From a virus (Duplodnaviria; Heunggongvirae; Uroviricota; Caudoviricetes), in the IMG/VR virus record IMGVR_UViG_3300047476_000806: DNA of 64,000 bases. The stretch is one strand, 5' to 3'. Shown piece by piece: positions 47,397 through 61,903 of the stretch. A program made the position numbers and the translations under genes. The first letter of the stretch is position 1. Each line of letters begins with the position of its first letter. The notes beneath the pieces were generated by a model, which was not told where the DNA came from, did no database searches, and worked only from the letters and a program-made list of their open reading frames with translations.

Positions 47397-48485
47397 TCAT
47401 AAAATTCTCAACAGTATCGTATCAGTATTAATACGACCGGTCAATGTTGCTTCTTTAGTTGTTAAATCGGTAAGTACGTTTCTAAGATAAACTTTGCCTT
47501 CTTTGATGACTTTTGGAACAACTTCATCAGGCTTTCTTAGAGTCTTAGTAATAGATTTTGCTTCTGAAAAGTTTAGTATCGTACTTCCTTTTACTGATAA
47601 TCCACTTGCATCTTCGGCAACATATACACCTAACTTTTTAGTTTTAGTGTTATATACCCATAACTGCTGAGAACCAATAATTTTCTTAGGGTCTTCAGAC
47701 TTCAATCCTGCAGGAGGATATTCTTTTTGATAAAACATTTTAGCCACTAATTGCTCAGGTGACTTTTGTTTTCTCTTTCTTGGCTTCCTAGACTTAGTAG
47801 CAGTCTCTAAGAATTTCATAATATCAACAATAATGTTGTCGCAAAATGAGACTACTTTCTTTAATTGTGATTTAGTATAACATGACCAAGCTTCAATCAA
47901 TTGTTCATCTTCAGTGTTTAATGCTTCATCAAACTGTGCTCTACGTTTCTTGAATGTTTCTAGCAATCTATTTGCATGAATACCTTTGACCTTATCTTGC
48001 ATAATTGCATAAGGTGAAGGTGTTATCTTGAAGTCGCTGGAGATATATGTATCAATTGCACCTTCTAGTTCACCTGCAATTTCTGATACTTTTTCATTAA
48101 TTCTATCTTGAATAGACACCACATTAGTAGGCTCATCAATTTGAATTTGTTTTCTTTCAGGTACATAAGACTTTAGAACATTAAGTCTCTCATCAAACCA
48201 TACTTGATTCTTTGCGTTTAGAATTAAACCTCTGTCTAACATTCGACATATGAAACCAAACGTGGTTGATTGATTGTTGATTGCTTCGGCTGAAGCTTTA
48301 ATATGATGCTTCTTAGCATAGTCGACGATTGCTTTATAAGCAAACTTACTATCTCTATTCTGAGTATACCATGTTAATGCTTGTGCTAATTCAATTTTTG
48401 AAACTTCAGTTAATTGTGTGAATCTAGGTTCACCGCCATTCGACTTTATCTCGAGTTCTTCAAGCGTCTGACGTTTTGTTGCCAT
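47397..48485 (-). CDS. hypothetical protein (362 aa)
   Basis: ORF. No motif. Confidence 0.4.
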   Translation of the reverse strand: MATKRQTLEELEIKSNGGEPRFTQLTEVSKIELAQALTWYTQNRDSKFAYKAIVDYAKKHHIKASAEAINNQSTTFGFICRMLDRGLILNAKNQVWFDERLNVLKSYVPERKQIQIDEPTNVVSIQDRINEKVSEIAGELEGAIDTYISSDFKITPSPYAIMQDKVKGIHANRLLETFKKRRAQFDEALNTEDEQLIEAWSCYTKSQLKKVVSFCDNIIVDIMKFLETATKSRKPRKRKQKSPEQLVAKMFYQKEYPPAGLKSEDPKKIIGSQQLWVYNTKTKKLGVYVAEDASGLSVKGSTILNFSEAKSITKTLRKPDEVVPKVIKEGKVYLRNVLTDLTTKEATLTGRINTDTILLRIL

Positions 48486-48759
48486 TTAATAATTCCTCAA
48501 AAGAGTATCTTGCATAATTTAGTAGCATGATACCGTTATCTGTTTCACCGTGTAATTTACTTATATGGACAGCTTCTGCCATTGCAGGCTCTTCATGCTT
48601 GAATATAAAACAATCTCCAAACATTTGCAAGAGTATTTCTCTATTCATCTCGAAGTTATTTGTTAAATCATCATATCGACCAAACAAGTTGGTATATTGA
48701 TTTGAGTAAGCAACTCGAAGTCCATCTTTAGTTATTAGTATATATATTCCTGTTTCCAT
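48460..48759 (-). CDS. hypothetical protein (99 aa)
   Basis: ORF. Contains a GIY tripeptide but no convincing GIY-YIG motif. Confidence 0.3.
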   Translation of the reverse strand: METGIYILITKDGLRVAYSNQYTNLFGRYDDLTNNFEMNREILLQMFGDCFIFKHEEPAMAEAVHISKLHGETDNGIMLLNYARYSFEELLNGNKTSDA

Positions 48760-48799
48760 TTGATTTTTCTTAATTTATTCGTATTCGAGAAAATATTAA

Positions 48800-48807
48800 C
48801 ATAAATA
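48800..48807 (+). promoter_or_regulatory. late-promoter-like motif CATAAATA upstream of the plus-strand island
   Basis: acATAAATAag. One mismatch to TATAAATA. About 35 nt before the 48842 ATG. Confidence 0.3.
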
Positions 48808-48841
48808 AGTATATTAGTCAACTATAGATTGAGATATTAAT

Positions 48842-49120
48842 ATGGAACAATTCTTTAAATTAGTCGCAGACGTTGGATTTCCTATAGCGGCCGCATGTGG
48901 TGCTGGATACTTTGTATTCTTAACACTTAAGTTTATTCTTGAAGGTGTTACAGGTGGTGTTAAAAGTATGGCAGGAATTATTATTGCACTTGATAAACGA
49001 GTAGCAACTATGAACCACGACGTACTACGTATCGATACTAAAGTAAGTCATGCATTAGGTATTCCACCTGATTTAGATAGAATATCACGAGCAGAACAAT
49101 CTGACGCTAGACGAGACTAA
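48842..49120 (+). CDS. membrane-anchored small protein, paralog 1 (N-terminal TM)
   Basis: VGFPIAAACGAGYFVFLTL. Paralogous to the next ORF (GFPIVAAGGLGYFVYYV). Confidence 0.45.
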   Translation: MEQFFKLVADVGFPIAAACGAGYFVFLTLKFILEGVTGGVKSMAGIIIALDKRVATMNHDVLRIDTKVSHALGIPPDLDRISRAEQSDARRD

Positions 49121-49121
49121 T

Positions 49122-49379
49122 ATGGATATAGTAGAATTAATTAATAAATACGGGTTCCCAATTGTTGCCGCTGGTGGTCTAGGTTACTTTGTTTACTACG
49201 TTTGGAAATGGGTAACTGAAGAAATTGAACCAGTTATTGGAGATTCTAAAAAAGTTTTGGTTGATTTGATTGACCGTATCAGAATGCTTGATAATGATTT
49301 AATCAGATTAACACAGAAAGTTAATACATTCTTAGCCATTGAAGATGCTAAGAAAAGGGATAGGAATAATAAGCAATAG
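49122..49379 (+). CDS. membrane-anchored small protein, paralog 2
   Basis: Tandem paralog with an N-terminal TM helix and a C-terminal helical region. Confidence 0.45.
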   Translation: MDIVELINKYGFPIVAAGGLGYFVYYVWKWVTEEIEPVIGDSKKVLVDLIDRIRMLDNDLIRLTQKVNTFLAIEDAKKRDRNNKQ

Positions 49380-49511
49380 AATCTTATCAAGGGGTAACAC
49401 CGAGATTCTACAAGTTGTCAAGTAGTTTGTCAAGAGAAATTTAAAAATATTGTAAATAATTAGTAACATCATGGTTTAGTTGATTGATTTGAATTACGGA
49501 ACTGAGCCAAA

Positions 49512-49952
49512 ATGAAAATATTAATATTTGCTATATGTCTATTACTATGTGGTAGTGCATATGCTACCGAATTAGTGCACGAGTTTTTTTCACCAGCCTT
49601 TTCAGGTAATGGTTATTCAACTCATATATTAACCATTGAGCAAATTGAGTCTCAGCGTAAACAAAAAATTAAAGATGAACAGAAAGCGGCTGAGACTAAA
49701 GCTGAATTAGCCGCTAAACAAACAAATCTTGCTAAGTTTTTAGTGAATGTTGAGTCTAGAATATATGCTCAATTATCTAAGCAACTTGCAGATGAAATGT
49801 TTGCCGAAGGTGGTGCTGATTCCGGTGAAATGAATTTTCAAGGAACTAACATATCATGGTACAAAACAGGAAGTGATGTAACCTTAACTATTCTTGAAGA
49901 TAACGGTAATAGAACCGAAGTTACTGTGCCGATAGCAGGATTCTCATTTTAA
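49512..49952 (+). CDS. csgF: CsgF-like curli assembly component with signal peptide
   Basis: Signal peptide MKILIFAICLLLCGSAYA. N-terminal EFFSPAFSGNGYS compares to E. coli CsgF FQFRNPNFGGNPN. The C-terminal TLTILEDNGNRTEVTVPIAGFSF compares to [21 protein letters not shown]...F. Confidence 0.55.
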   Translation: MKILIFAICLLLCGSAYATELVHEFFSPAFSGNGYSTHILTIEQIESQRKQKIKDEQKAAETKAELAAKQTNLAKFLVNVESRIYAQLSKQLADEMFAEGGADSGEMNFQGTNISWYKTGSDVTLTILEDNGNRTEVTVPIAGFSF

Positions 49953-50731
49953 TGATTCGTTTATTGATACTAATATTCGTTTTGTCAGGATGTGCTAACG
50001 TTCATATGAATGCGGCAAAAGAAGAACCTGTCAAGATAGAAGCTAGAAAAAAGATTGTTGATGCTTTACCTGAATTGGATGGACCACCGATTCCTATCGC
50101 AGTGTATTCGTTCGCAGATAAGACAGGTCAAAAGAAGTCATCAGATAATCTGGCATTGTTTAGTACCGCAGTAACGCAAGGTGCAGAAGTGTTTCTAATC
50201 AAAGCGTTACAAGATAGTAAGAATTGGTTTAAAGTAGTAGAAAGGGTGGGACTTGATAATCTTATTAAAGAAAGACAGTTGATAAGAAATCAAAGAGAAG
50301 TATATGAAGGTAAAGAAGCAAAGCCATTAAAACCAATGATGGTTGCTGGTGTAATGATAGAAGGAGGTATCATTGGATATGATACTAACATCAGGTCAGG
50401 TGGTAATGGTGCTAGATTATTAGGTATTGGTGTTTCACAGCAATATAGAGTAGATGAAATTGTAATCTCTATTAGATTGGTGAATGTCAATTCGGGTGAA
50501 GTAATGTTAACTAACGCAGTATCCAAAACGATTTACAGTACTCAACATAACTTAGGTATCATGAAGTTTGTTGATTCAGGTACTAAGTCGATTGAGTTTG
50601 AAAATGGAGTTGCACTTAATGAACCTACTACATTCGCAGTAAGAGTTGCGATTGAACAAGCGGTTTATGAATTGATAATAGATGGAGAAAAGAAAGGTTA
50701 TTGGAAATTTAAAAAGGAAAAACAGCAATGA
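49952..50731 (+). CDS. csgG: CsgG-like curli secretion channel lipoprotein
   Basis: Lipobox LSGC. LFSTAVTQGAEVFLIKALQDSKNWF, EGGIIGYDTNIRSGGNGARLLGIG and RLVNVNSGEV match E. coli CsgG (NFSTAVPQSATAMLVTALKDSRWF, EGSIIGYESNVKSGGVGARYFGIG, RVVNVSTGEI). Confidence 0.75.
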   Translation: MIRLLILIFVLSGCANVHMNAAKEEPVKIEARKKIVDALPELDGPPIPIAVYSFADKTGQKKSSDNLALFSTAVTQGAEVFLIKALQDSKNWFKVVERVGLDNLIKERQLIRNQREVYEGKEAKPLKPMMVAGVMIEGGIIGYDTNIRSGGNGARLLGIGVSQQYRVDEIVISIRLVNVNSGEVMLTNAVSKTIYSTQHNLGIMKFVDSGTKSIEFENGVALNEPTTFAVRVAIEQAVYELIIDGEKKGYWKFKKEKQQ

Positions 50732-51315
50732 AAAAAATAGCATTAATCTTTATGATGATAATGCTTAGTAATGTATATGCCGCAGAAATTTATATTGAAC
50801 AGTCAGGAAGTAGTTCTACTGTCAATATAAATCAAGAAGGTATAGGTAATATTGTAGGTGATTCACTGAATCCGCTTTATATTGGCGGTGGTTCGAATAA
50901 CGTTGATATCGACCAAATCGGTGATAATAACAACCTTCAAGGTGTTGTAAATGGTGCAGGAACAGCAACCACAGTAACAACTAATGGTTCAGGTAATATT
51001 CAAATTATTAATTGTGGTACAACAACATCAGCAGGATGTTCATCATCAGTAATCAAACAAGTAGTTACTGGAAGTGATAACACTATAACTCAAGATTTAG
51101 GTACTGGTGCTAATCATAACAGTGAGATTACGATTACTGGAAGTGATAACGCAGTGACTCATACTAGCACAAATGCTGGTGCAAGTACTGTAGATATTTC
51201 AGTGAGTGGTAATCAAAATACTGTGGGAGTAACACAAAGTGGACTTACAGCGAAAACTGTATCAGTTAGTTCTACTGGTAATAGCAATAATATTACTATC
51301 AACCAGTCAGAATAG
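50728..51315 (+). CDS. secreted curlin-repeat (CsgA/CsgB-like) protein
   Basis: Signal peptide MKKIALIFMMIMLSNVYA. Repeated S/T/N/Q/G-rich units are of the form (S/G)xNxxx(I/V)xQxGxxN, for example DIDQIGDNNNLQG, ITQDLGTGANHNSEI and VGVTQSGLTAKT. AAGGAAAAAC RBS. Confidence 0.5.
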   Translation: MKKIALIFMMIMLSNVYAAEIYIEQSGSSSTVNINQEGIGNIVGDSLNPLYIGGGSNNVDIDQIGDNNNLQGVVNGAGTATTVTTNGSGNIQIINCGTTTSAGCSSSVIKQVVTGSDNTITQDLGTGANHNSEITITGSDNAVTHTSTNAGASTVDISVSGNQNTVGVTQSGLTAKTVSVSSTGNSNNITINQSE

Positions 51316-52336
51316 TTATTCAGCAATCGGTAAAGTTTCAGAACAAACAGGTCCTACCGAGATTGTCCGACAAAGCAAATCAATAGAGAGTAAATTAAAC
51401 TCTTCTATTGAGATGCTTGACACTGTGGTAACCGCAAAGTCTAAAGTGTTACTAACGTTCGAAGATGATACAACAGTTAAGATTACTGAACAATCTAAAT
51501 TAATTATCGATGATTTTGTTTATGATAATAAAAAAGGTGCTGGTAAATTAGCATTAAAAGTTGCTTTGGGTACGGCAAGATATGCTTCAGGACAGATAGC
51601 TAAGAGTAACCCACAATCAGTTAACATACAGACACCAACAGCAACAATTGCAGTTCGTGGTACTGATTTTAGTATGACTGTAGATGAATTAGGTAGAAGT
51701 TTGGTGATGCTTTTACCTTCTTGTGATAAGAAAGCGTGTGTAACAGGTGCTATTGAAGTGAGTACCGATGCAGGTTCTGTTTTTATGAATCAAGCATATC
51801 AAACAACTGTAGTTGCTACACGAGACCAAGCACCAACTAAGCCTGTGATTGTTAATATAGACCAGGCAAATATTAATAACTTGTTGATTGTTGCACCTCC
51901 AAAACAAGTAGAAGAACAAAAGATACAGCAAGATAATAAAACTGTATTAGATTATAACTTTTTAGATAGAGATTTATTAGAGTATAACAAACTAGATGAA
52001 GATGAATTAAAAAGGTTTAGTTTACTTGATATGAATTTTTTATCTTTTGATTTGTTACCAAATATTTTGGATGAATCGAATAGGTCATTAGCGGCAAGTC
52101 AAGAAGCAATGCTAGAAGAAAAAACTTTGCTTCCTGGATATAATGAAGCATCAGGATTGAAATATGGTATAGATGAAAATGGTAAGTTGATTTTAACAAA
52201 GATTGCTAATCATACTGCACAAGTGACAGTTGATAAAGAGCATGATGTGATTGTTAGTATTACGCAGGATAGTTCACCACTGATACAAAAAGTGAATGGT
52301 GGTGGAACAACAACAATTAACATTAATCAGAAATAG
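51239..52336 (+). CDS. FecR-domain periplasmic protein
   Basis: TPTATIAVRGTDFSM is the FecR signature. The N-terminal 25 codons (KLYQLVLLVIAIILLSTSQNSYSA) form a Sec signal peptide encoded in an alternative frame over the last 77 nt of the curlin-like gene. Confidence 0.45.
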   Translation: MDLQRKLYQLVLLVIAIILLSTSQNSYSAIGKVSEQTGPTEIVRQSKSIESKLNSSIEMLDTVVTAKSKVLLTFEDDTTVKITEQSKLIIDDFVYDNKKGAGKLALKVALGTARYASGQIAKSNPQSVNIQTPTATIAVRGTDFSMTVDELGRSLVMLLPSCDKKACVTGAIEVSTDAGSVFMNQAYQTTVVATRDQAPTKPVIVNIDQANINNLLIVAPPKQVEEQKIQQDNKTVLDYNFLDRDLLEYNKLDEDELKRFSLLDMNFLSFDLLPNILDESNRSLAASQEAMLEEKTLLPGYNEASGLKYGIDENGKLILTKIANHTAQVTVDKEHDVIVSITQDSSPLIQKVNGGGTTTININQK

Positions 52337-52344
52337 GAGTAAAA

Positions 52345-54339
52345 ATGCTAAAGCAATCTTTATTAACAGTGGCATTAATCGGTGTGTTTGGTACAGTTCA
52401 ATCAGCACCTTTAGTATTAGAAGGCGATTACATCAAAATTGGTGTAAACGAAGTAGGTACATTAGGTTCTAATGGTAATACATCACCTGGTGTTCTATAT
52501 GATAACACCGGCACAGGAACATTCAACACAGCATATGACTACTTAACTCCTGGTTCACCATTCGAAGGATGGACTGTTCAATATAATGGAACAGAATCAG
52601 TGATGAATAACAATGCTCAATGGTCATCACCACAAATGACAGGTACACTAACAAGTTACAATGGTGTTGCTTACAATGGTACAACATTCGACAATCGAGC
52701 AGTTTGGGAAGGTACTTCAGTAAACTTTGATTTGTTACATGATGTTCGCTTCAATGATAATCAAAAGTTTGTGGATATTACATCAATATTGACAGCTAAA
52801 GTTGCAATGACTGATTTATACTTCGCAAGATATACAGACCCTGACGCACGTGCGGCCGCTGGTGACAGTTCTGCTACAACAAACACATTAGGATTCTCAC
52901 CTATTCCAGTAACTCAAGTTGTATTTTCTGAAGCTTTAGTATCTAGATATGCACTTGGTTTATACTCAGCGGCACCTAACGTAGGCGCAGGTGTTAGTTC
53001 AGGTTGGTCAACAGACGCAACAACATATTACACCGGTGCAAATGATGGTAATGGTGACTATACGATAGGTTTAGGCTTCCACGTACCAACAGTAGCAATT
53101 GGTGACATCGTTACCTTTAATTATGCATACATCTTTGGACCTAGCACATTATCTGCTGGTTCTACTGCTGTTACTTCAGGTGCTGGTGGTGGCGTTCCTG
53201 GTGAAGTTCCTGGTTGTGTGTCTGATTGTACATTACCACCTGACCCTAGTTCAACTCCTACATTAGTATCAACAGACGTTGAGTTATCTAGTGTATCTGT
53301 AGTTCATAGAGGTGATACTGATACTGCAATCGAATACGACTATGCAACATCAAAAGGTTCTAAAGTATTAGCTGTAAATCAAACTACAACTACAACTTTA
53401 ACAACTCCAGTAACAACTACAGTAGCTTCTACTTCAACTACAGTTGAAACATATAGTGATTCATCAGTAGTTCGTACAGTTGGTGCAACTACAACGACAT
53501 CAAGTACAGTTAATGACGTAACAGAATCAGAATATGATACTGCATTCTCAACAAGAATTGACCAATTTGATAGATTGTCAGCATCAAATGAAATGTACAA
53601 TAGACAGTTAAATAGTAATATCATGGATAGATTTGTAGCAGGTCAAACTGGTGCTTATTTAAACATCGATAGTCAAACTAGCAATACACAAGATACCTAT
53701 AAACAAAAAGCAAATCGTTTTGGTGTTGGAGTAGACAAGTCTATTACTGATAATTTGAATGTAGGTTTTCAATACAATAACATTTCATCAAGATTATCTG
53801 GAACTAATGCAGGTGGACGTTTAGATAAAAATCATGTTGGTGCATATGCTGTATACACTAAAAACAATTGGGTGTTTGTAAACGATATTGGTTTCTCATA
53901 TAACGATTACAAAACAAATCACAGTTTACCTGAATTGAATGCAACAAATAGTTCAAGTGCTAATGGATATGACTTATGGGTTAGCGGTAGAGCATATACT
54001 CCATCACTAAAAGGATTCAGACCATATGCTGGTATTAGAATTGAAAACAACAACTTAGATTCAGCTAAAGATAAAGGTACTGAATTGACTGCTGTTAGTT
54101 ATAGTAAAATTAATTCAACAAATACAACAGGTGAATATGGTATCAGATACGATTATCAATACAAAAAAGTTAACTTGTTAGCTGAAGTTGGTTCTAATTC
54201 TGATAATATCAAACTATACAAAGCAGGTATTAACTTTATTCCAAATGAAAAAGTTATTGGTGGTGTATCATTTACGCAACAAGAATATGATAATATCAAG
54301 AATGATGTGATTTCAGCTAATATAAAAGTTAATTTCTAA
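52345..54339 (+). CDS. autotransporter-like outer-membrane protein (signal peptide, passenger, Thr-rich linker, C-terminal beta-barrel)
   Basis: Signal peptide MLKQSLLTVALIGVFGTVQSAP. T-rich linker TTTTTLTTPVTTTVASTSTTVE. The C-terminal ~270 aa have alternating hydrophobics and end ...NIKVNF, with an OMP-type terminal Phe. AGGAG RBS. Confidence 0.5.
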   Translation: MLKQSLLTVALIGVFGTVQSAPLVLEGDYIKIGVNEVGTLGSNGNTSPGVLYDNTGTGTFNTAYDYLTPGSPFEGWTVQYNGTESVMNNNAQWSSPQMTGTLTSYNGVAYNGTTFDNRAVWEGTSVNFDLLHDVRFNDNQKFVDITSILTAKVAMTDLYFARYTDPDARAAAGDSSATTNTLGFSPIPVTQVVFSEALVSRYALGLYSAAPNVGAGVSSGWSTDATTYYTGANDGNGDYTIGLGFHVPTVAIGDIVTFNYAYIFGPSTLSAGSTAVTSGAGGGVPGEVPGCVSDCTLPPDPSSTPTLVSTDVELSSVSVVHRGDTDTAIEYDYATSKGSKVLAVNQTTTTTLTTPVTTTVASTSTTVETYSDSSVVRTVGATTTTSSTVNDVTESEYDTAFSTRIDQFDRLSASNEMYNRQLNSNIMDRFVAGQTGAYLNIDSQTSNTQDTYKQKANRFGVGVDKSITDNLNVGFQYNNISSRLSGTNAGGRLDKNHVGAYAVYTKNNWVFVNDIGFSYNDYKTNHSLPELNATNSSSANGYDLWVSGRAYTPSLKGFRPYAGIRIENNNLDSAKDKGTELTAVSYSKINSTNTTGEYGIRYDYQYKKVNLLAEVGSNSDNIKLYKAGINFIPNEKVIGGVSFTQQEYDNIKNDVISANIKVNF

Positions 54340-54363
54340 TTTTTAACGACTAAATAAGTAATC

Positions 54364-56382
54364 ATGAAAAAATTACTTAATCCATGGTTAGCGTTAATAA
54401 CGTTAACTTTATTAGTAGTAATCAGATTGGCAGACTTCAGTTTTATCGAGTCTGTCAGATTGCGATATTTTGACACATTAATTACAAGTGAATCTGTAAA
54501 GGTTTCTGAACAAATTCACGTTGTAAATATAGATGATAAGTCCATAGAAAAGTATGGACAATTTCCGTTTCCTAGAGGTGATTATGCGAGCATTATTGAT
54601 TCTTTGTATGACCGTGGCGCTGGGCTGGTTGTTTTTAACTTGTTTCTACCTGATAGTGATAGGTTTGGACAAGATGGTAGACTTACTTCTACCCTTAACA
54701 AACACCCTGTAGTATTCCCACAAGCTGGTTCTACTGATAAACAAAAAGCTATACCATTTAGACCTGGTGTTTCTGAGATTGGAACACCAGCTTCTAATTT
54801 TGCAGTATCTTATCCAAGTATTTTAACTAACATAAAACAAATTAATGAAAATGCCGCTGGCATTGGAGTAGTGAATGTATTACCTGAAATTGATGGTGTT
54901 GTCCGTCGTGTACCTATGGTCGTCTCAAGCAATGGCGTATTGTTTCCCTCAATCACACTTGAAACTTTGCGAGTTGCTTCCGGAGACCCAAGTTTCCAAG
55001 TCAAGTCAACAGATTACGGTATCGAGGCCGTCAGAATACCTAGCTTCAGAAAAGTTGAAACTGACTCTTTCGGACGAGTTTGGATTGACTGGTCCACTAA
55101 GCCTACCGAACACAGTCTTGTTGATTTACCCAAGTCCTTTGATGGGACAATCGTCATTGTTGGACTCAGTGCTAAAGGACTCAACAATCCTGTCGCAACA
55201 GCAAGAGGAGAGGTCTATCCGCATTATTTACAGGCAAGCGTTCTAGATACACTTGTATCAGGTAAAAATATTAGTAGACCTGACTGGTCAAATGGTGTAG
55301 AATTATTATTGACAGTTATTCTGTCTGTGATATCTATATTATTAACTAGGTGGAAATATGGCTTTATTGCTTTTCTTGCTATCATTGCTGGTGTTGTGGG
55401 TGCTTCTAAAGGTGCTTTTGTTTACTATTCGTATCTTCTTGATTGTATTTTTCCTGTGTTTTGCTTGGGTATTGTTTATTTACATGTGTATACAGTTAAG
55501 TTCGTAAGCGAATTAAATCAAAAACTTCAAATCAAAAAACAATTTGGCACATATCTGTCGCCAGCACTTGTTGAAAAACTTCAAAAGAATCCTGAATTAT
55601 TAAGACTTGGTGGTGAGTCTCGTGAACTATCTATTATGTTCACCGATGTTAGAGGCTTCACTACAATCTCAGAACACTATGGTAAAGATGTTCAAGGATT
55701 AACTCAAATTATGAATCGCTACATGACAGCGATGACCGCAAAGATTATTGAGAACAACGGAACACTGGATAAATACATTGGTGATGCTCAGATGGCTTTC
55801 TGGAATGCACCACTTGATGAGCCTAACCACGCTAAATTGGCATTGAAAACGGCTCTAGAAATGATGGAGAGTTTAGATGCGTTTAATAAAGAGATTCAAA
55901 AAGAGGGTATTCCGGCGTTTGGTATGGGACTCGGGATTAATACTGGCACTGTTGTCGTTGGTAATATGGGTTCTAGCCAACGCTTTGATTACACCTGCTT
56001 AGGTGATGCTGTTAACTTAGCGTCACGTTTAGAAGGACAATCGAAACCTTATGGTGTTAAAATCATATTAGGTTCGTTAACTGCTGAACAAGTTAAAGAT
56101 GAATATCCAGTTGTTGAGTTAGATTGTATTGCTGTTAAAGGTAAAACAGAAGGTGTTAAGATTTATACTCCTTGTGTTTATCAAGAAGAGCATTATAAGT
56201 TACACAAAAAATATCTAAAATCATACTATGATGGTATTTGGGATTCAGCAATTTTCTTTGCTAAAGATTTAGAGATTAATGGTCCTACAGAATTACGTCA
56301 ATATTATCATAACATGATAGAGAGAATGCTTGAAGGTAAACCTGAAGATTGGGATGGTACGTATAGAGCAACTAGCAAGTAA
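54364..56382 (+). CDS. CHASE2 sensor-domain class III adenylate/guanylate cyclase
   Basis: N-terminal TM plus the CHASE2 pattern (IHVVNIDDKSIEKYGQFPFPRGDYASIIDSL...GAGLVVFNLFLPD), then several TM helices, then the cyclase core (SIMFTDVRGFTTISE, GDAVNLASRLE). Confidence 0.75.
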   Translation: MKKLLNPWLALITLTLLVVIRLADFSFIESVRLRYFDTLITSESVKVSEQIHVVNIDDKSIEKYGQFPFPRGDYASIIDSLYDRGAGLVVFNLFLPDSDRFGQDGRLTSTLNKHPVVFPQAGSTDKQKAIPFRPGVSEIGTPASNFAVSYPSILTNIKQINENAAGIGVVNVLPEIDGVVRRVPMVVSSNGVLFPSITLETLRVASGDPSFQVKSTDYGIEAVRIPSFRKVETDSFGRVWIDWSTKPTEHSLVDLPKSFDGTIVIVGLSAKGLNNPVATARGEVYPHYLQASVLDTLVSGKNISRPDWSNGVELLLTVILSVISILLTRWKYGFIAFLAIIAGVVGASKGAFVYYSYLLDCIFPVFCLGIVYLHVYTVKFVSELNQKLQIKKQFGTYLSPALVEKLQKNPELLRLGGESRELSIMFTDVRGFTTISEHYGKDVQGLTQIMNRYMTAMTAKIIENNGTLDKYIGDAQMAFWNAPLDEPNHAKLALKTALEMMESLDAFNKEIQKEGIPAFGMGLGINTGTVVVGNMGSSQRFDYTCLGDAVNLASRLEGQSKPYGVKIILGSLTAEQVKDEYPVVELDCIAVKGKTEGVKIYTPCVYQEEHYKLHKKYLKSYYDGIWDSAIFFAKDLEINGPTELRQYYHNMIERMLEGKPEDWDGTYRATSK

Positions 56383-56430
56383 TTTGCATATCACGCAAAT
56401 TTAAATATGATTTTTTGCGTCAAGTGCAAA

Positions 56431-56682
56431 TTACTTGTCATATCTTGAGTTATATATATTATGGTGGTCATCATAATTTTTTCTATATTCAAACTCTTTA
56501 TCAGTCAAACAAAATTTACCTTGTTTTATTTCAGATAGATATTTTTTTAATCTTTTTTGTCTGTCATCAATTATAAATTTAGCCATACCTTGTTCTTGAA
56601 ACATATTTATTTGATTAATTGAATTTTTAATATCAAATAGTATTTCTTCTTTATATCGAAGAGGTTTCTTTTTATATTCCAT
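56431..56682 (-). CDS. hypothetical protein (83 aa)
   Basis: ORF. Confidence 0.3.
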   Translation of the reverse strand: MEYKKKPLRYKEEILFDIKNSINQINMFQEQGMAKFIIDDRQKRLKKYLSEIKQGKFCLTDKEFEYRKNYDDHHNIYNSRYDK

Positions 56683-56696
56683 TATAATATCTCACT

Positions 56697-56891
56697 CTAT
56701 AAAAACTCGTATTTAAAACACTTGACACATAATGCACCAAATGCAGGACCACTTATAGCACTGATAGTCTCTTTACAATTAGAACAATGAATGAAAGCTT
56801 GAGTATATATCATACCAGATTTAGGTTCAAGTATTTCTGTACCGTCAGTATAATATCCTATTACTTTATCTTTTTCAGTATTGACAGACAT
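56697..56891 (-). CDS. hypothetical zinc-ribbon protein (64 aa)
   Basis: CSNC...CVKC. Confidence 0.3.
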   Translation of the reverse strand: MSVNTEKDKVIGYYTDGTEILEPKSGMIYTQAFIHCSNCKETISAISGPAFGALCVKCFKYEFL

Positions 56892-56905
56892 ATTAATCTT
56901 TCAAT

Positions 56906-56984
56906 TGGTGGGCCCCGTGGGATTCGAACCCACTGTCTATCGGTTATGAGCCGATTGCTTATACCAGATTTAAGCTTGAGGCCC
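56906..56984 (-). tRNA. tRNA-Ile2(k2CAU) or tRNA-Met, anticodon CAT
   Basis: Hand-folded cloverleaf. Acceptor GGGCCTC/GGGGCCC with C4-G69 and C5-G68. Anticodon loop CTCATAA. T-loop TTCGAAT. CCA encoded. Confidence 0.7.
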
Positions 56985-56989
56985 GAATA

Positions 56990-57063
56990 TGGAGCGTCCT
57001 GCGGGAATCGAACCCGCCTCTTCAGCTTGGAAGGCTGTAATAATACCACTATACCAAGAACGC
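56990..57063 (-). tRNA. tRNA-Gly(TCC)
   Basis: Cloverleaf. Anticodon loop CTTCCAA. T arm GCGGG/TTCGATT/CCCGC. CCA encoded. Confidence 0.7.
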
Positions 57064-57340
57064 ATAACGGATGAAAAAGCAAGTAAAAGACGGGACAATG
57101 TACATTAGAAGGGCTATGCCACTAAACTCTAAGACAATCAACAAACCACAATAATCAAAACCTGCATATTAGTTAGAAACAAAACACAAAGTCGTCGTTT
57201 ATAATACTAACACACGCAGAACGATTTCAGGTCGTTTTGGATTTGGCGTCCATACTGGAGAGAAATTAATCTCATCTTAGTCAATTCTCATCTCTTTTTC
57301 ATGCCGAGTAGATTTTTTGAAGAAAACCTACCAGAAAAAC

Positions 57341-57907
57341 TTAAAGAATACCTGCTTTAGTTAGTGTTTCCACTACGTTATCAGGTAACTCAATCTCAGT
57401 CTTAATATTCAATTCAAGAATCTTATCTTGAATTTTTTGCTTCTCTTTTTTGAATGTAGAAACATTCTTTTTAGCAATAGAAATATTACCTTCAGTACAT
57501 ACGGTAGTAGTTACTTCATCGGCTCTACCATATACACTTCTAGTAGTATCTGTATTGTTTTTAATCTTATCAAGCTTACCTTCGACAATATTAATAGCTG
57601 TCGCTGGTGCTGAAGTTGCTATGTTTTGATGTAGATGAATAGTCTTTTCAATCAATGCAACATCACTTAACAAATCATTAATTTGATTTGCGTTTGCTTT
57701 ACCAACTAGTTTTCTAATCGTATACAAACTAACATACAAATCATTATTTACCTCAAAAGCTGTTAAATAATCTTTGTTTGCTTTATCAAACTTTTCAGAT
57801 ACATTTTCAAACTCATTGAATGTAACCATATTGTTTAGCTGATTATTCTTAATAGTATCAAGAATAGTTTGTTGTAATGCATTTGCTTTTCTAAGCGTAA
57901 TTTTCAT
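57341..57907 (-). CDS. hypothetical protein (188 aa)
   Basis: ORF inside the tRNA island. Confidence 0.4.
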   Translation of the reverse strand: MKITLRKANALQQTILDTIKNNQLNNMVTFNEFENVSEKFDKANKDYLTAFEVNNDLYVSLYTIRKLVGKANANQINDLLSDVALIEKTIHLHQNIATSAPATAINIVEGKLDKIKNNTDTTRSVYGRADEVTTTVCTEGNISIAKKNVSTFKKEKQKIQDKILELNIKTEIELPDNVVETLTKAGIL

Positions 57908-57915
57908 AATAACTC

Positions 57916-58101
57916 CTAATGTGCTAAAATCTTAAAGCACTTAAATTTAATAACTTTTGTTGTACCTGAAGCCATCTTCTTAGCTTCTTCACCTGCGGCA
58001 ACACATTCTTGTTGTGAAAAGAAACCTGGTACATTAGTTAATGCCATCGAATCAGTATCACTCATCATACCTGCATGTGCAAACAATAATAAAACCCACA
58101 T
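57916..58101 (-). CDS. hypothetical small protein with N-terminal hydrophobic segment (61 aa)
   Basis: MWVLLLFAHAGMMS. Confidence 0.3.
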   Translation of the reverse strand: MWVLLLFAHAGMMSDTDSMALTNVPGFFSQQECVAAGEEAKKMASGTTKVIKFKCFKILAH

Positions 58102-58123
58102 AATAAATCTCCAATAATAAGAA

Positions 58124-58199
58124 TGGTGTCCCCGGAGAGAATCGAACTCCCGTATAATGCTTTAGAAGAGCACTGCGTCATCCACTACGCTACGAGGAC
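58124..58199 (-). tRNA. tRNA-Arg(TCT)
   Basis: Canonical 76-nt cloverleaf. Anticodon loop CTTCTAA. A73. CCA encoded. Confidence 0.8.
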
Positions 58200-58234
58200 A
58201 TTTGAAAGCATATTACTATACTTTACTTTAAATG

Positions 58235-58795
58235 TCAAATATATCTACTATGTTTAGGTAGTTTAGACTTTAAGTATTCCATTTGGTCAGCAACTACGTT
58301 TCTATTCTGTAGAATAAAGTGTTCCCATCTACAAGGTCTGTAAGGTAAAAACAACAATAACATATTAGCTTCTTCAGGTGTTCTATCTGCTTTCTTAGAG
58401 TTACAGTGCTTACATGAAGACACTGAGTTTTCCCAAGCATTAGAACCACCACGACTTCTTGGATGTACGTGGTCTCTAGTCAAATCTTTTGATTCAAAGA
58501 ATAGTCCACAGTAAGCACATAAGTTATGGTCTCGTCTGAATAACAAAAAGTTACCGTGAGCATTCACAGTTTCTTTAGTATGCAATCTTCGAGTTTCACC
58601 TCTTACTGAGATGATAGACTTGATACTGATTTGAGATTGTAAACCATTCTTTTGATAGCCGCCATGAAACACTTGAAACTCAGTACCTAAGTCCCAAACA
58701 ACTTTATCTGAGGCGTAGTAATGCACCGCTTCTTCGGGCATCAGCCACTTGAAGGGATTACCTGCAATATCTAGTCCTAGTATACGTGCTTCCAT
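58235..58795 (-). CDS. HNH endonuclease
   Basis: CAYCG...LTRDHVHPRSRGGSNAWENSVSSCKHCNSKK is an HNH motif with Zn-binding cysteines. Confidence 0.65.
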   Translation of the reverse strand: MEARILGLDIAGNPFKWLMPEEAVHYYASDKVVWDLGTEFQVFHGGYQKNGLQSQISIKSIISVRGETRRLHTKETVNAHGNFLLFRRDHNLCAYCGLFFESKDLTRDHVHPRSRGGSNAWENSVSSCKHCNSKKADRTPEEANMLLLFLPYRPCRWEHFILQNRNVVADQMEYLKSKLPKHSRYI

Positions 58796-58845
58796 GATAG
58801 TCTCAAAAAAATAATTTAGATGTTATATGTATATATCTTTAAAAT

Positions 58846-58922
58846 TGGTGCGGAAGGAGGGAGTCGAACCCTCAAAACTCGGATTTTAAGTCCGATACGT
58901 ATGCCAATTCCGTCACATCCGC
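58846..58922 (-). tRNA. tRNA with anticodon TAA (Leu UUR decoding) but class-I architecture (5-nt variable region)
   Basis: Perfect 5-bp anticodon stem TCGGA/TCCGA with loop CTTAAAA. T arm GAGGG/TTCGACT/CCCTC. 3-bp D stem. A73. One T-T mismatch at 6:67. CCA encoded. 77 nt. Confidence 0.55.
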
Positions 58923-59001
58923 TTATTAAATTTAGAACGTTGCTGTTTCTGAACCCTAGTAGTAACAATAAAGTTAAAAAATTACAGCAACGCTCTAAAA
59001 C

Positions 59002-59078
59002 TGGTAGAAGTAGTGAGATTCGAACTCACGATAGGTTGCGTATGAAGCAACTGCATTAAGCCACTATGCTACACTTCT
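59002..59078 (-). tRNA. tRNA-Met(CAT) (elongator-type)
   Basis: Cloverleaf. Anticodon stem GTTGC/GCAAC, loop TTCATAC. T-loop TTCGAAT. CCA encoded. Confidence 0.7.
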
Positions 59079-59269
59079 GTTAAAACTTTTTGCTTCATAA
59101 ATTGGCAGTATGCTTTATAATCTTCATGCATTGCCTTTTGTATTAACTCATCAGTGCTTTTATAAAAAATATGTCCAACTAGTTTTAATCTAATAGACTC
59201 ATATAAACAGTCCATCTTCAATTCTTCAGATGGAGGATATTCTTTATAAAACTCTTCATAAGTTAACAT
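59069..59269 (-). CDS. hypothetical protein (66 aa)
   Basis: The real start is ATG at 59269 with an AAGGA RBS. The ORF-track start at 59290 runs into tRNA-His. Confidence 0.3.
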   Translation of the reverse strand: MLTYEEFYKEYPPSEELKMDCLYESIRLKLVGHIFYKSTDELIQKAMHEDYKAYCQFMKQKVLTEV

Positions 59270-59279
59270 AATAATCCTT

Positions 59280-59355
59280 TGGGGTGTCATACGAGATTTG
59301 AACTCGTGCTATAACATTCACAGTGTTAGGTGCTAACCACTACACTAATGACACC
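59280..59355 (-). tRNA. tRNA-His(GTG)
   Basis: Anticodon loop CTGTGAA. Discriminator C73. Encoded extra 5' G(-1). T-loop TTCAAAT. Confidence 0.8.
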
Positions 59356-59361
59356 ATTAAA

Positions 59362-59435
59362 TGGCTCCGGTGGAGGGAGTCGAACCCCCGCCAAGAGGTT
59401 TGGAGTCTCTTGTGCTACCGTAACACTTCACCGGA
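59362..59435 (-). tRNA. tRNA-Trp(CCA)
   Basis: Anticodon loop CTCCAAA, identical to E. coli tRNA-Trp. G73. Perfect acceptor TCCGGTG/CACCGGA. Confidence 0.75.
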
Positions 59436-59442
59436 ATAAAAC

Positions 59443-59519
59443 TGGAGGATAGAGTGAGATTCGAACTCACGAACCACTGCTTTGCAGGCAGGTACCTTAG
59501 ACCACTCGGTCATCTATCC
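59443..59519 (-). tRNA. tRNA-Cys(GCA)
   Basis: Anticodon loop CTGCAAA. Discriminator U73. T arm GTGAG/TTCGAAT/CTCAC. Confidence 0.75.
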
Positions 59520-59741
59520 TTAACAACAACCTGCATCTGGAAAAATAAATACTTTTTCTTCAGCAGAATCATCAGTATTATATTCAATAAATGTGTTAAT
59601 TTCTTCTTGTGCAAATGTAACACCTTCATTCTCTGCTAAAAACGTAGCATCAGCTAGATTATCAGCAACTACAACTAACCCGCCATCTGAATGGTAATTG
59701 TCAGTTAGATTAGCAATCCTTGTCCAAATAAAAACTTTCAT
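59520..59741 (-). CDS. hypothetical acidic protein (73 aa)
   Basis: ORF whose stop abuts the tRNA-Cys 5' end. Confidence 0.35.
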   Translation of the reverse strand: MKVFIWTRIANLTDNYHSDGGLVVVADNLADATFLAENEGVTFAQEEINTFIEYNTDDSAEEKVFIFPDAGCC

Positions 59742-59744
59742 AAT

Positions 59745-60161
59745 CTACTCCAATGGAAATAATTCTTTAAATTTTGCAGTCATTACATCAATTAAAACTG
59801 GATGACGATAATCGTAGTCATCTTCAATTTCTAAATTAATTACTTGTTTAAAATCAAAATCAAATGTCCAATTATCCATATCATTAAACATTTTGTTTTG
59901 CATTGTATTGATATGTAATTGTTGAATACTATCCATCACTAGAATAACATCAGCCCAAATAATCAAAGCTTCAGTCACAGGAATAATCGCATATTCTGCA
60001 CTAGTTCCTGCACATCTAGTATTGAAGTTCCATGGTTCTGAACTAAGAATATGTGCCGCTGTAGGACTTCTTAGACATCCTGCTGAACATACAGTCAATA
60101 CTTTCTTATGCTTTCCTTGATAAGCATTGAATATCACCCCAAGTTGGTTTCTTTTTAGCAT
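59745..60161 (-). CDS. low-molecular-weight protein tyrosine phosphatase / ArsC-fold protein
   Basis: P-loop VLTVCSAGCLRSPTAAHIL has the form C-x5-R-S. The start is uncertain, as the ORF overlaps the upstream ORF. Confidence 0.45.
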   Translation of the reverse strand: MLKRNQLGVIFNAYQGKHKKVLTVCSAGCLRSPTAAHILSSEPWNFNTRCAGTSAEYAIIPVTEALIIWADVILVMDSIQQLHINTMQNKMFNDMDNWTFDFDFKQVINLEIEDDYDYRHPVLIDVMTAKFKELFPLE

Positions 60162-60330
60162 TCTTACTTTCCTTAATAAAAATCTTTAGTGTTCTACCTT
60201 CATCTTGAAGACTAAACTCTAATGATTCTACATTCCAATTAGTATAACTACGACCTTTACCATCAATCACTTCAACTCTAGTGACATCATAATAAGGCTC
60301 TTCAAATCTATTAATATGCGGATTGGTCAT
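60106..60330 (-). CDS. hypothetical protein (74 aa)
   Basis: ORF. Confidence 0.3.
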   Translation of the reverse strand: MTNPHINRFEEPYYDVTRVEVIDGKGRSYTNWNVESLEFSLQDEGRTLKIFIKESKNAKKKPTWGDIQCLSRKA

Positions 60331-60883
60331 GGAATGTAAATCCTTTATTCTTAAATTTTTGTAATCGCCACTCTTTAATAAATTTGATATCAGTATTATA
60401 GATTAGCTTCTTATTCATACATGCGTCATACTGTTCTCGTGAGATAAACAACTTATCTTGCATCAACAAATAGTAAGGTTTGCAATGAACAAAGTCAAAA
60501 TGATTTCGAACATCATTAGGATGTCCTGCAAACGTGAAGATGAATGAGTCATCAGTCTTCATGGTAATCGCATTAGCGGTAATCATTTTACCATTATTAT
60601 CTGCGTGTTCCATGTAATTGATATTGACTTCTTTAATCTCATCATCATAATTCTTTTCTATGTGTTCTTTAAATGTTACGGCAGAATCTTGGTCATAGAA
60701 ATAAAAGTCCCAATCTTTAGGTATTTCGCCCCTTAATAGAGAACCGATTGCACCACCTGAAAGATACACGGCATCATTTTCATACAGCATTTTCCACCAA
60801 TCAAAATTCTTCAATGCTTCCATATGGAATTTAATGGTGTCTTTTACATCTTTAATTTTATTCTTTTCGTTTTCAGTAAACAT
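60311..60883 (-). CDS. Pol-beta-superfamily nucleotidyltransferase-like protein (190 aa)
   Basis: YLSGGAIGSLLRGEIPKDWDFYF matches the hG[GS]-x9-DxD nucleotidyltransferase motif. Confidence 0.4.
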   Translation of the reverse strand: MFTENEKNKIKDVKDTIKFHMEALKNFDWWKMLYENDAVYLSGGAIGSLLRGEIPKDWDFYFYDQDSAVTFKEHIEKNYDDEIKEVNINYMEHADNNGKMITANAITMKTDDSFIFTFAGHPNDVRNHFDFVHCKPYYLLMQDKLFISREQYDACMNKKLIYNTDIKFIKEWRLQKFKNKGFTFHDQSAY

Positions 60884-60945
60884 ACAATCACCTAATCATA
60901 ATATAAAATAATCATACATCAAAATTAATTTAATGTAAAGCATTA

Positions 60946-61021
60946 TTTGGTAGGACCCCTCGGAATCGAACCGAGTCCTCAGCGTCTTCAGCGCCACGTA
61001 CTGACCACATATACGTGAGTC
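60946..61021 (-). tRNA. tRNA-Phe(GAA)
   Basis: Cloverleaf. Anticodon loop CTGAAGA, with U33 and anticodon GAA. T arm CTCGG/TTCGATT/CCGAG. A73. Position 37 is G, which is atypical. Confidence 0.6.
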
Positions 61022-61023
61022 CT

Positions 61024-61099
61024 ATTGGTACTCGAAGAGAGAATCGAACTCTCATTTGACGATTATCGGTCGTCTGTTCTAAACCGTTGAACTATTCGA
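61024..61099 (-). tRNA. tRNA-Ile(GAT)
   Basis: Perfect D and anticodon stems. Anticodon loop CCGATAA (C33). T arm GAGAG/TTCGATT/CTCTC. Confidence 0.65.
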
Positions 61100-61102
61100 G
61101 CA

Positions 61103-61603
61103 TTAATAAACAACATTATAGCAACAATTAAGTACTACTCTCTCAATATTGCTATTCTTAACTTGTTCTACTTTATGATAATACCAAGGCATCATATTAA
61201 CAAAAATACATGTTCCATATTTTGGATATACTGTGAACACTTCTTCTTGAGCATTCTTGAAACTGATAGAACCACCAGTTTCTTCGTTCATATCATTAAA
61301 GTATACTAAAGCAAACAGATTCCAACCTTCTCTTAAATCGTTGTGCCAATCACAACTAGTTGGTTCTGTACCTTTCCATAATTCTGTTTTTCCAACATCT
61401 ACAGATTGAAACGACTTGTTTAATATTGTAACAAGCTTTTCATTAATAGATTTTATAGCGTTATCTAAATTGTCATCATCTTTAGGTTCATATACATTGT
61501 TTAAATGTTCGTCTTTCCATATGATTAATTTTAAATCAACATCCGATAACAACTCAGAAATGTCGATTTGATGATAACCTTTTTCTATTAAATCATTTAT
61601 CAT
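61103..61603 (-). CDS. 2OG-Fe(II) oxygenase-superfamily-like protein (166 aa)
   Basis: HxD (CDWHND) and a distal His (YYHKV) are spaced as in the double-stranded beta-helix oxygenases. Weak assignment. Confidence 0.35.
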   Translation of the reverse strand: MINDLIEKGYHQIDISELLSDVDLKLIIWKDEHLNNVYEPKDDDNLDNAIKSINEKLVTILNKSFQSVDVGKTELWKGTEPTSCDWHNDLREGWNLFALVYFNDMNEETGGSISFKNAQEEVFTVYPKYGTCIFVNMMPWYYHKVEQVKNSNIERVVLNCCYNVVY

Positions 61604-61616
61604 AATCTTCCTTTAT

Positions 61617-61692
61617 TGGACCCCTCTGCAAGAATCGAACTTGCATCATAACGTTCGTAGCGTTGTATTCTAATCCATTGAACTAAAAGGGG
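61617..61692 (-). tRNA. tRNA-Arg(ACG)
   Basis: Anticodon loop CTACGAA. T arm GCAAG/TTCGATT/CTTGC. CCA encoded. Confidence 0.7.
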
Positions 61693-61698
61693 TAAAAC

Positions 61699-61773
61699 TG
61701 GCGACTCGTGGGGGAATCGAACCCCCGTATCCTACTAGACAGGCAGGCATAATAACCATTATATCAACGAGTC
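61699..61773 (-). tRNA. tRNA-Asp(GTC)
   Basis: Anticodon loop CTGTCTA. G73. T arm GGGGG/TTCGATT/CCCCC. Perfect acceptor. Confidence 0.7.
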
Positions 61774-61823
61774 AAAAAACTTTCAAGCAATTGTTTTCAG
61801 CAATCGATGAAAGCCGTGTTACA

Positions 61824-61898
61824 TGGTGCCCCGTGACGGATTCGAACCGCCATAACCTGATTACAAAACAGGCATAATAGCCTTTATATGAACAGGGC
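61824..61898 (-). tRNA. tRNA-Thr(TGT)
   Basis: Anticodon loop TTTGTAA. T-loop TTCGAAT. CCA encoded. Confidence 0.7.
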
Positions 61899-61903
61899 AA
61901 AAC

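Follow-up and report, generated by a model that had tools for sequence, protein, structure and literature searches.

A copy of the viral curli module with an autotransporter in its variable slot, predicted in an uncultured T4-like phage

Introduction

What use could a tailed phage make of eight consecutive genes for envelope proteins of bacterial type? The question is raised by the 64,000-nucleotide stretch of virus DNA deposited as IMG/VR record IMGVR_UViG_3300047476_000806 (hereafter the window, meaning this stretch at its full length), in which eight plus-strand open reading frames (ORFs; 48842-56382) stand in a row, flanked by minus-strand phage genes on one side and by a cluster of tRNA genes on the other. 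An original prediction, made from the letters of the DNA, assigned this island to two paralogous small membrane-anchored proteins, a CsgF-like, a CsgG-like and a curlin-like protein, a FecR-domain protein, an autotransporter-like protein and a CHASE2 cyclase, and regarded the combination as a horizontally acquired secretion-plus-signalling cassette that was not recognised as a described phage system. Our analysis upholds all eight gene assignments, based on Pfam, on a comparison of the two paralogs and on the fold of the autotransporter, and it supports the view of a coherent bacterial-type envelope cassette for secretion and signalling. The claim of novelty does not stand. As judged by sequence comparison, the island is a copy of the published viral curli (type VIII secretion) module, and what is new about it is the autotransporter in a variable slot, the single curlin gene, and the uncultured lineage in which it resides.

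In phages of the most abundant ocean bacteria, few auxiliary gene sets are as large and as widespread as the curli module. It has been described as the 'curli operon' of pelagimyophages, whose function was called a mystery and for which an uptake pore or 'sibling capture' was proposed (Zaragoza-Solas 2020, PMC7029224). It was later found in podophages, such as those of the HTVC023P type, as well as in myophages, at all 65 ocean stations examined, and its expression was evident from metatranscriptomes; an alphaproteobacterial origin with subsequent transfer between phage families was inferred (Wittmers 2022, PMC9599517). In the literature following these papers, we found no functional study of the cassette. 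The window extends the module to a more distant, uncultured T4-like lineage and presents it as a fixed core with an exchangeable surface-protein slot, in which the FecR protein and the adenylate cyclase (AC) would represent a ready-made envelope-sensor pair.

Results and discussion

Relationship to known phage modules

Protein-level searches recovered the genes of the island in identical order in the Pelagibacter phage HTVC008M (gp011-gp019) and in four Melnitz isolates (gp97-104). The corresponding annotations are curli components, curlin-associated proteins, a FecR-domain protein, and an adenylate/guanylate cyclase. Along the series small gene(s), CsgF, CsgG, curlin, FecR, slot and cyclase, the window and the pelagiphage type VIII secretion system (T8SS) module share 38-54% amino acid identity per gene. 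The full set according to Wittmers 2022 consists of one or two 'HK', CsgF, CsgG, CsgA/B, FecR, often a second CsgA/B, and AC (PMC9599517). The window keeps to this order, with an autotransporter replacing the optional second CsgA/B. Thus, homologous islands of the same gene order exist in HTVC008M and Melnitz and have been discussed in three papers (PMC7029224, PMC9004378, PMC9599517), which refutes the statement that the combination is not a described phage system. These islands have been annotated and analysed, though not experimentally characterised.

The remaining window is that of a T4-like myovirus, with genes for the baseplate wedge, the hub, the tail tube cap and an RNase H-type exonuclease. 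Identities of the baseplate wedge protein are 44% with Melnitz, 42% with Mosig and 40% with HTVC008M, and the nearest cultured phages by this protein are carriers of the pelagiphage module. A nucleotide search of deposited phages gave no match to the island or to 25 kb of structural genes. Given this result and the low identity of the baseplate protein, we assign the window to an uncultured, distant T4-like relative of the HTVC008M/Melnitz group. The same comparison bears on the age of the cassette. The G+C content of the island (0.34-0.39) is the same as that of the remaining window, and the cassette is common to phages with a baseplate protein that is only 40-44% identical. Neither observation supports a recent horizontal acquisition, and the latter indicates a long residence of the cassette in this phage group.

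With CsgG as query, IMG/VR yielded 59 further viral loci, at CsgG identities of 52-90%. The comparison with related genomes that the original prediction had called for was thereby possible, and it revealed two different behaviours. The core order CsgF-CsgG-curlin-FecR, with the cyclase at the end, is kept in these loci wherever the contig is long enough, whereas the slot between FecR and cyclase is variable. The window itself deviates from the pelagiphage module as follows: its slot contains a type Va autotransporter of 664 aa, whereas marine phages carry a second curlin at this position (fused to a PA14 domain in HTVC008M); it has a single curlin gene; its cassette has the opposite orientation to the replication genes upstream; and 24 tRNA genes are located just downstream.

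Curli genes and their bacterial counterparts

The CsgF homolog (49512-49952, plus strand, 146 aa) carries a signal peptide and matches Pfam CsgF (E 2.6e-17) and phrog_35372 (E 1.1e-47). The Pfam match scores 63.6 bits at a cut-off of 25.8 and spans positions 5-132 of the 132 profile positions. The stop codon of csgF and the start codon of csgG have base 49952 in common (TAATG). The csgG product (49952-50731, plus strand, 259 aa) is a lipoprotein and matches the CsgG models of Pfam (E 3.7e-52) and NCBIfam (E 1.3e-51) as well as the E. coli CsgG structures, the latter over residues 3-256 (E 4.6e-47). It has the lipobox LSGC, in which G13 and C14 are invariant across 10 phage homologs. By analogy with bacterial curli systems, the CsgG homolog would act as the outer-membrane curli secretion channel, and the CsgF homolog as its cap and adaptor.

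The csgG gene overlaps the following gene by four bases (ATGA, 50728-50731). Both operon-like overlaps noted previously, TAATG and ATGA, are therefore confirmed. The gene downstream of csgG encodes the curlin-repeat protein (50728-51315, plus strand, 195 aa), which is equipped with a signal peptide and reaches 25.7 bits with Pfam Curlin_rpt, for which the cut-off is 20.7. Three repeat stretches became visible with a relaxed Pfam threshold. The match to NCBIfam CsgA (E 8.4e-5) is far below the equivalog cut-off. The protein thus counts as a curlin by its repeats rather than by orthology to E. coli CsgA; presumably, it represents the secreted fibre subunit. Of the 59 viral loci, 52 have a curlin gene after csgG, and the other seven all end approximately 1 kb or less past csgG. 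All cassettes that reach far enough have retained a gene for a signal-peptide-bearing curlin-repeat protein directly after csgG. A hidden Markov model (HMM) of the first curlin recognised the second curlins of the marine phages HTVC008M and Melnitz with E-values of 1e-13 to 3e-4, and an HMM of the curlin C-terminus detected no second curlin-repeat gene in the 64-kb window.

Bacterial loci were collected with a CsgG profile from one genome per species, resulting in 13 loci. The full cassette was present only in eight contigs of metagenome-assembled genomes (MAGs), which are 2.3-50 kb long, most of them less than 20 kb, and which are binned to Polynucleobacter, Rhodobacteraceae (two), Flavobacteriaceae, Legionellales, Cellvibrio, and Pelagibacter (two). 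A further contig from a Pirellulales MAG ends just past the curlin gene. The MAG contigs with the phage cassette (L062-L067, L069, L070 and L074 in our collection) are probably misbinned phage contigs, and as such they could mislead surveys of bacterial curli genes. On three long chromosomal contigs with CsgG, neither FecR nor the cyclase was detected. This sample is too small to say whether the fusion of curli genes with the FecR/CHASE2 pair originated in phages, and there may be a bacterial donor with the fused arrangement.

With bacterial curli systems the window has in common a CsgG channel with lipobox, a full-length CsgF and a secreted curlin-repeat protein. Unlike the E. coli csgBAC-csgDEFG system and the operon of Nitratireductor soli, which encodes curlin, CsgH, an unknown protein, CsgF and CsgG in this order (L068, 5806-10777), the window is devoid of CsgE, CsgC, CsgD and CsgH. 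The gene order is csgF-csgG-curlin in the window versus curlin-csgH-x-csgF-csgG in Nitratireductor, and the constriction-loop residues of the phage CsgG differ from those of the E. coli protein. Moreover, the curli genes of the window are joined to FecR and CHASE2 cyclase genes, which none of the three genuine chromosomal loci in our collection contains. The Nitratireductor soli operon adjoins a divergently oriented gene for a Crp-family regulator with a cyclic-nucleotide-binding domain. Although confined to one locus, this neighbourhood suggests that curli and cyclic nucleotides might be naturally connected in Alphaproteobacteria.

FecR-domain protein and CHASE2 cyclase

The curlin gene is followed by the gene of the FecR-domain protein (51239-52336, plus strand, 365 aa, GTG start), which has a signal peptide and a Pfam FecR match (E 1.3e-10) comprising residues 61-150. 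The C-terminal half is of unknown fold, and Pfam detected neither a TPR nor a barrel domain. In a pairwise comparison, the FecR domain was 31% identical to that of NsrA from Sinorhizobium meliloti (E 1e-9). Some automatic gene calls, including the one for a copy identical to the window, give a protein of 307 aa that starts at Met59 and has lost the signal peptide. The full-length homologs of 355-367 aa require a non-ATG start (GTG at 51239 in the window), which entails a 77-nt overlap with the end of the curlin gene.

The last gene of the island (54364-56382, plus strand, 672 aa) encodes a receptor-type class III adenylate cyclase with clear matches to Pfam CHASE2 (E 3.9e-37) and Guanylate_cyc (E 1.5e-20). 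It is composed of a transmembrane (TM) helix, a periplasmic CHASE2 domain, a TM cluster (residues 308-381) and a cytoplasmic cyclase domain (residues 420-596). Alignment with CyaC from Spirulina identified the catalytic residues D428 and D474 (metal binding), K470 and T544 (adenine-specifying), and N551 and R555 (transition state). Among 158 family members the two aspartates, the lysine and the arginine are invariant, position 544 is occupied by Thr, Asp or Ser, and position 551 by Asn or Ser. This conservation argues that the cyclase is under selection, and the enzyme looks like an adenylate cyclase. Assignment to the Pycsar defence system was considered and rejected: the base-specifying Lys and Thr/Asp residues are those of adenylate cyclases, and no effector gene is found among the island proteins.

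The cyclase is 33% identical to CyaK of S. meliloti over 85% of its length (E 2e-60). On the S. meliloti plasmid pSymB, the gene that is located directly upstream of cyaK and overlaps it encodes a protein of 1190 aa with a FecR domain, TPR repeats and a barrel. We take this protein to be NsrA on account of its position, size and barrel, as the record does not bear that name. On Paracoccus plasmid pAMI5, genes for TPR, FecR and CHASE2-cyclase proteins stand in a row and adjoin a gene for a cyclic-nucleotide-binding patatin, and on an Ensifer plasmid, FecR and TPR genes adjoin a CHASE2 cyclase gene. Clustering of FecR and CHASE2 cyclase genes has also been reported for Campylobacterota (PMC9239204). 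NsrA and CHASE2 cyclases form a pathway, supported by experiments, that leads from the outer membrane to cyclic AMP (cAMP) and responds to a plant signal (PMC13001267, PMC7529298). In the window the FecR gene is separated from the cyclase gene by the slot gene; in several relatives both are directly adjacent, with gaps of 78-193 nt. All 44 loci, viral and from the genome collection, that extend at least 4 kb beyond the FecR start carry the cyclase. On the basis of the gene pairing in Sinorhizobium, Paracoccus, Ensifer and Campylobacterota and of the similarity to NsrA, the phage FecR protein is best read as an envelope partner of the CHASE2 cyclase, and not as an iron regulator.

The arrangement of a FecR-domain envelope protein upstream of a CHASE2 cyclase is thus shared with NsrA-CyaK, part of the plant-signal pathway of S. 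meliloti to which CyaD1/D2 belong as well. The architecture is different. In NsrA, FecR, TPR and outer-membrane barrel are joined in one protein of 1190 aa, whereas the phage protein has 365 aa and lacks TPR and barrel; a separate barrel protein, the autotransporter, is encoded between FecR and cyclase in the window, and it is missing in many relatives.

A tentative lead comes from the C-terminus of the FecR protein (window 52150-52336). Its homologs, including those in locus L001, in HTVC008M (L002) and in more than 40 loci, all terminate in a sequence pattern similar to that of the last curlin repeat (..INI.Q.G....G....I.I.Q). A profile-profile alignment (hhalign) paired the C-termini of the FecR protein and of the curlin with P 0.011. 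An HMM of the curlin C-terminus gave E-values of 0.5-10 with the FecR family, which is not significant, and Pfam Curlin_rpt matched none of 35 family members. The curlin-like terminus weakly hints at a docking of the FecR protein on the fibre.

The slot protein

The slot of the window (52345-54339, plus strand) encodes a protein of 664 aa with the complete inventory of a type Va autotransporter. The signal peptide is followed by a passenger that forms a beta-supersandwich (residues ~23-265), a Thr-rich beta stalk (307-404), a plug helix (407-421) and a C-terminal 12-strand barrel (436-663) with a terminal Phe. The Pfam autotransporter model was not significant on this sequence. Signal peptide, passenger, alpha-helical plug, 12-strand barrel and terminal aromatic residue are features of NalP, EstA, AIDA-I and Hbp as well. 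The passenger sets the phage-encoded protein apart from these: it consists of a beta-supersandwich of ~240 residues, and not of a beta-helix or an esterase. Its fold is that of galactose mutarotase-like or glycosidase N-domains and is of the carbohydrate-binding type. The family is large, with 1547 homologs at E≤1e-5, and phage-encoded autotransporters are already present in viral structure collections. Wittmers et al. mention neither an autotransporter nor CHASE2 (PMC9599517).

In the lineage of the window, the stretch from FecR to the cyclase contains autotransporters of 680-1160 aa or unrelated genes, or it is empty. In marine phages it is filled by a second curlin-repeat protein. In HTVC008M, this is gp018 (L002, 7639-8964; annotated as 'hypothetical protein'), in which a PA14 domain (E 2.7e-6) is fused to curlin repeats (E 5.2e-8), an architecture that would put a lectin-like domain on an amyloid anchor. 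Six loci (L008, L015, L018, L020, L023 and L060) carry an autotransporter-like gene between csgF and csgG instead, the product being 38-45% identical to that of the window; in L018 it is located at about 7500-10000. The gene of the surface protein hence moves within the cassette. Wherever the occupant of the slot can be identified, it is a surface-displayed protein with a domain of the carbohydrate-binding type, that is, either PA14-curlin or a supersandwich autotransporter.

Small membrane proteins

The island starts with two small genes on the plus strand. Small membrane protein 1 (48842-49120, 92 aa) and small membrane protein 2 (49122-49379, 85 aa) match phrog_18771, a PHROG of unknown function, with E-values of 4.9e-35 and 6.3e-33, respectively. 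They are paralogs with 32% identity (E 2e-14). Protein 1 has a single N-terminal hydrophobic segment (residues 11-33) followed by a helical tail. In relatives, the gene pair is mostly located just upstream of the cassette, and in some of them downstream on the other strand. Wittmers 2022 labelled the small upstream genes 'HK' (PMC9599517). Searches for histidine kinase domains retrieved neither HisKA nor HATPase, with Pfam at E≤10 and with NCBIfam at E≤0.01, and the label looks like an over-reading. A holin assignment was likewise discarded, as the matches to phrog_4898 (holin) are marginal (E 0.005 for protein 1 and 2.6e-4 for protein 2) and confined to the N-terminal 28-58 residues. Pfam revealed no lysin gene among the island proteins.

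An N-terminal hydrophobic segment was detected in seven of the eight island proteins, and small protein 2 remained under the hydropathy threshold used. For these seven, the result accords with the envelope targeting that had been proposed for all island proteins.

Transcription signals

T4-type late promoters follow the consensus TATAAATA. A motif resembling these, CATAAATA (48800-48807, plus strand), precedes the first small gene by 34-35 nt, and a second promoter-like motif, TGTAAATA (49451-49458, plus strand), lies upstream of csgF. Both had been noted in the original prediction and are in place. The ATAAATA core is rarer than expected by chance in the window (21 sites versus 37.8 expected), and in front of several baseplate and tail genes it occurs at a distance of 5-30 nt, as is the case for T4-type late promoters. 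Relatives provide comparative support. Within 80 nt upstream of the gene, 22 of 35 distinct relatives have the TAAATA core at the first small gene (shuffled sequences: mean 5.6, maximum 12), and 32 of 47 have it at csgF (mean 5.6, maximum 13). The corresponding numbers were 0 of 52 for csgG and 1 of 45 for the curlin gene. The counts derive from related sequences and therefore overstate independence; the contrast between the genes is still clear. These data support two conserved promoter-like sites, one in front of the first small gene and one in front of csgF. Enrichment at just these two genes, together with the occurrence of the same core before baseplate genes, points to expression late in infection.

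At the other end of the island, a near-perfect hairpin with an outer stem of 15 bp and an inner stem of 7 bp (56375-56438) overlaps the stop codon of the cyclase gene and is situated between convergent genes. Its folding energy is -26.3 kcal/mol (z-score -7.2), and none of 200 shuffled sequences folded equally well. The hairpin probably marks the 3' boundary of the cassette and may function as a bidirectional terminator or an RNA-stabilising element. Another hairpin, in the intergenic stretch from small gene 2 to csgF, was not significant (z -1.2).

Function of the cassette

The combined observations are best explained by a cassette that joins two bacterial modules, an alphaproteobacterial-style curli machine and a FecR/CHASE2 sensor pair that would connect envelope and cytoplasm. 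We consider it rather probable that this viral T8SS module serves a late-expressed remodelling of the cell surface, by amyloid fibre and adhesin, that is coupled to cAMP signalling. In this scenario, the T4-type late promoters before the first small gene and csgF would fire late in infection. Curlin, exported by the Sec pathway, would cross the CsgG channel in the outer membrane, with CsgF as surface cap and adaptor, and polymerise on the cell surface. The infected cell would acquire a coat of amyloid fibres plus a glycan-binding adhesin, and the periplasmic FecR protein and the inner-membrane CHASE2 cyclase would convert an envelope or surface cue into cAMP. The benefit might consist in sticking to neighbouring cells or particles, in receptor masking against superinfection and against the loss of progeny on debris, or in both. 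The occurrence of two unrelated displays of a glycan-binding-type domain in the same slot favours adhesion or surface coating over a bare pore.

Several findings weigh against this interpretation. Cultures infected with Melnitz did not clump (Buchholz 2022, PMC9004378). The curlin match is weak (Pfam 25.7 bits, NCBIfam CsgA below the cut-off), and the window encodes one curlin and not a separate nucleator and major subunit. In E. coli, curli formation requires the nucleator CsgB besides the major subunit. CsgE, CsgC and CsgD are without a Pfam or NCBIfam match among the eight island proteins; these components are likewise absent from the alphaproteobacterial curli type and from the published phage modules (PMC9599517). 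With respect to signalling, an outer-membrane barrel like that of NsrA is missing from the FecR protein, whose AlphaFold2 model (pLDDT 48) was unusable and left the C-terminal half unmodelled; the underlying alignment was shallow, with all homologs being at least 63% identical. A CRP-like cAMP receptor, such as the Clr/CRP-type receptor of the NsrA-CyaK system, was found neither in the window nor in the viral loci, although a single CRP query is a weak test. The specificity of the cyclase is read from sequence only, and the promoters are deduced from a short AT-rich motif in related, non-independent sequences.

Each of the alternatives to surface remodelling leaves conserved genes unexplained. 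The one that survives best is a lysis-timing device, as proposed for the Methylophilales phage Melnitz from structure models and synteny (Buchholz 2022, PMC9004378). CsgG and CsgF would form a gated pore, similar to a secretin or a pinholin, with the small proteins as holin-like partners and the cyclase as timing signal. The late-promoter-like motifs, the weak phrog_4898 matches of the small proteins, and the failure to find a CsgE gate are in keeping with this proposal. The channel, however, has a cognate cargo, since a curlin gene with signal peptide always follows csgG where the contig suffices, and an outer-membrane CsgG would be unable to depolarise the inner membrane as holins do. Furthermore, the holin matches are marginal, the small genes are located away from the cassette in some relatives, and the surface-adhesin slot is left without an explanation. 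We therefore regard this device as unlikely.

Still less probable is an uptake pore (Zaragoza-Solas 2020, PMC7029224; Wittmers 2022, PMC9599517), according to which an ungated CsgG would admit larger nutrients or cofactors to the periplasm of streamlined hosts, with FecR being tied to iron-siderophore sensing. The hosts of the cultured relatives do have small genomes with few transporters, and CsgE is absent. The pore, however, accounts neither for the conserved CsgF and curlin nor for the adhesin-slot genes and the cyclase. Partners of the FecI or FecA type were not found near the FecR gene, whose bacterial relatives are paired with CHASE2 cyclases and not with iron-uptake genes. Late expression would, in addition, leave little time for a gain of nutrients. 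Equally improbable is cyclic-nucleotide warfare, in which the signal of the cyclase would disturb host defence (e.g. Pycsar, CBASS) or reprogram metabolism, with no more than a linkage to the curli genes. In favour of this reading, the cyclase is matched by Pycsar PycC models (E 1.3e-25), its catalytic residues are strictly conserved, and it is present whenever the contig is long enough, but the PycC matches reflect general class III homology with an adenine-type base-specifying pair as in CyaC (Lys470 and Thr/Asp/Ser at 544), the enzyme spans the membrane as a receptor, with its CHASE2 domain in the periplasm and its ancestral FecR partner retained beside it, and the cyclase is often missing from the podophage cassettes (PMC9599517), meaning that the curli part can stand alone.

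Surface adhesion combined with cAMP signalling late in infection is hence the direction toward which the hypotheses have been narrowed, and HTVC008M with SAR11 and Melnitz with OM43 offer culturable systems. If infected cells turn sticky, this would bear on aggregation, particle export and gene exchange in bacterioplankton. A more far-reaching version of surface remodelling, which we consider improbable, would have the FecR/CHASE2 cyclase wired to the curli fibre or to the slot adhesin. The pair would then sense what the infected cell touches, be it hosts, particles or superinfecting phage, and cAMP would tune the late phase of infection. Room for such contact sensing is provided by the linkage of FecR and cyclase in all 44 loci, the surface proteins in the slot, the late motifs and the precedent of NsrA-CyaK. 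If true, lysis could be delayed or triggered by the local density of new hosts, which would amount to a phage-encoded decision circuit.

Genomic context

The ORF listing bears out that the eight consecutive plus-strand genes interrupt a minus-strand stretch of ~35 kb in total. All ORFs of at least 90 aa in 21251-48759 and from 57341 to the end of the window are on the minus strand, apart from short overlapping ORFs on the opposite strand. Two further minus-strand ORFs of less than 90 aa are located in 56431-56891. The GC skew changes its sign across the island, in line with the strand switch. A second, smaller plus-strand block (16421-21207) lies inside the structural region and includes an ORF of 679 aa (19168-21207) without a PHROG match at E≤1e-5.

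Directly downstream of the cassette, 24 tRNA genes occupy positions 56906-63092 on the minus strand, which confirms the tRNA island reported at this place. An Rfam scan of 48000-57500 returned tRNAs only. An ORF for an HNH endonuclease (58235-58795; PHROG E 3.3e-26) sits among the tRNA genes, and the tRNA cluster gives rise to a G+C peak of 0.46 at 62001-63000.

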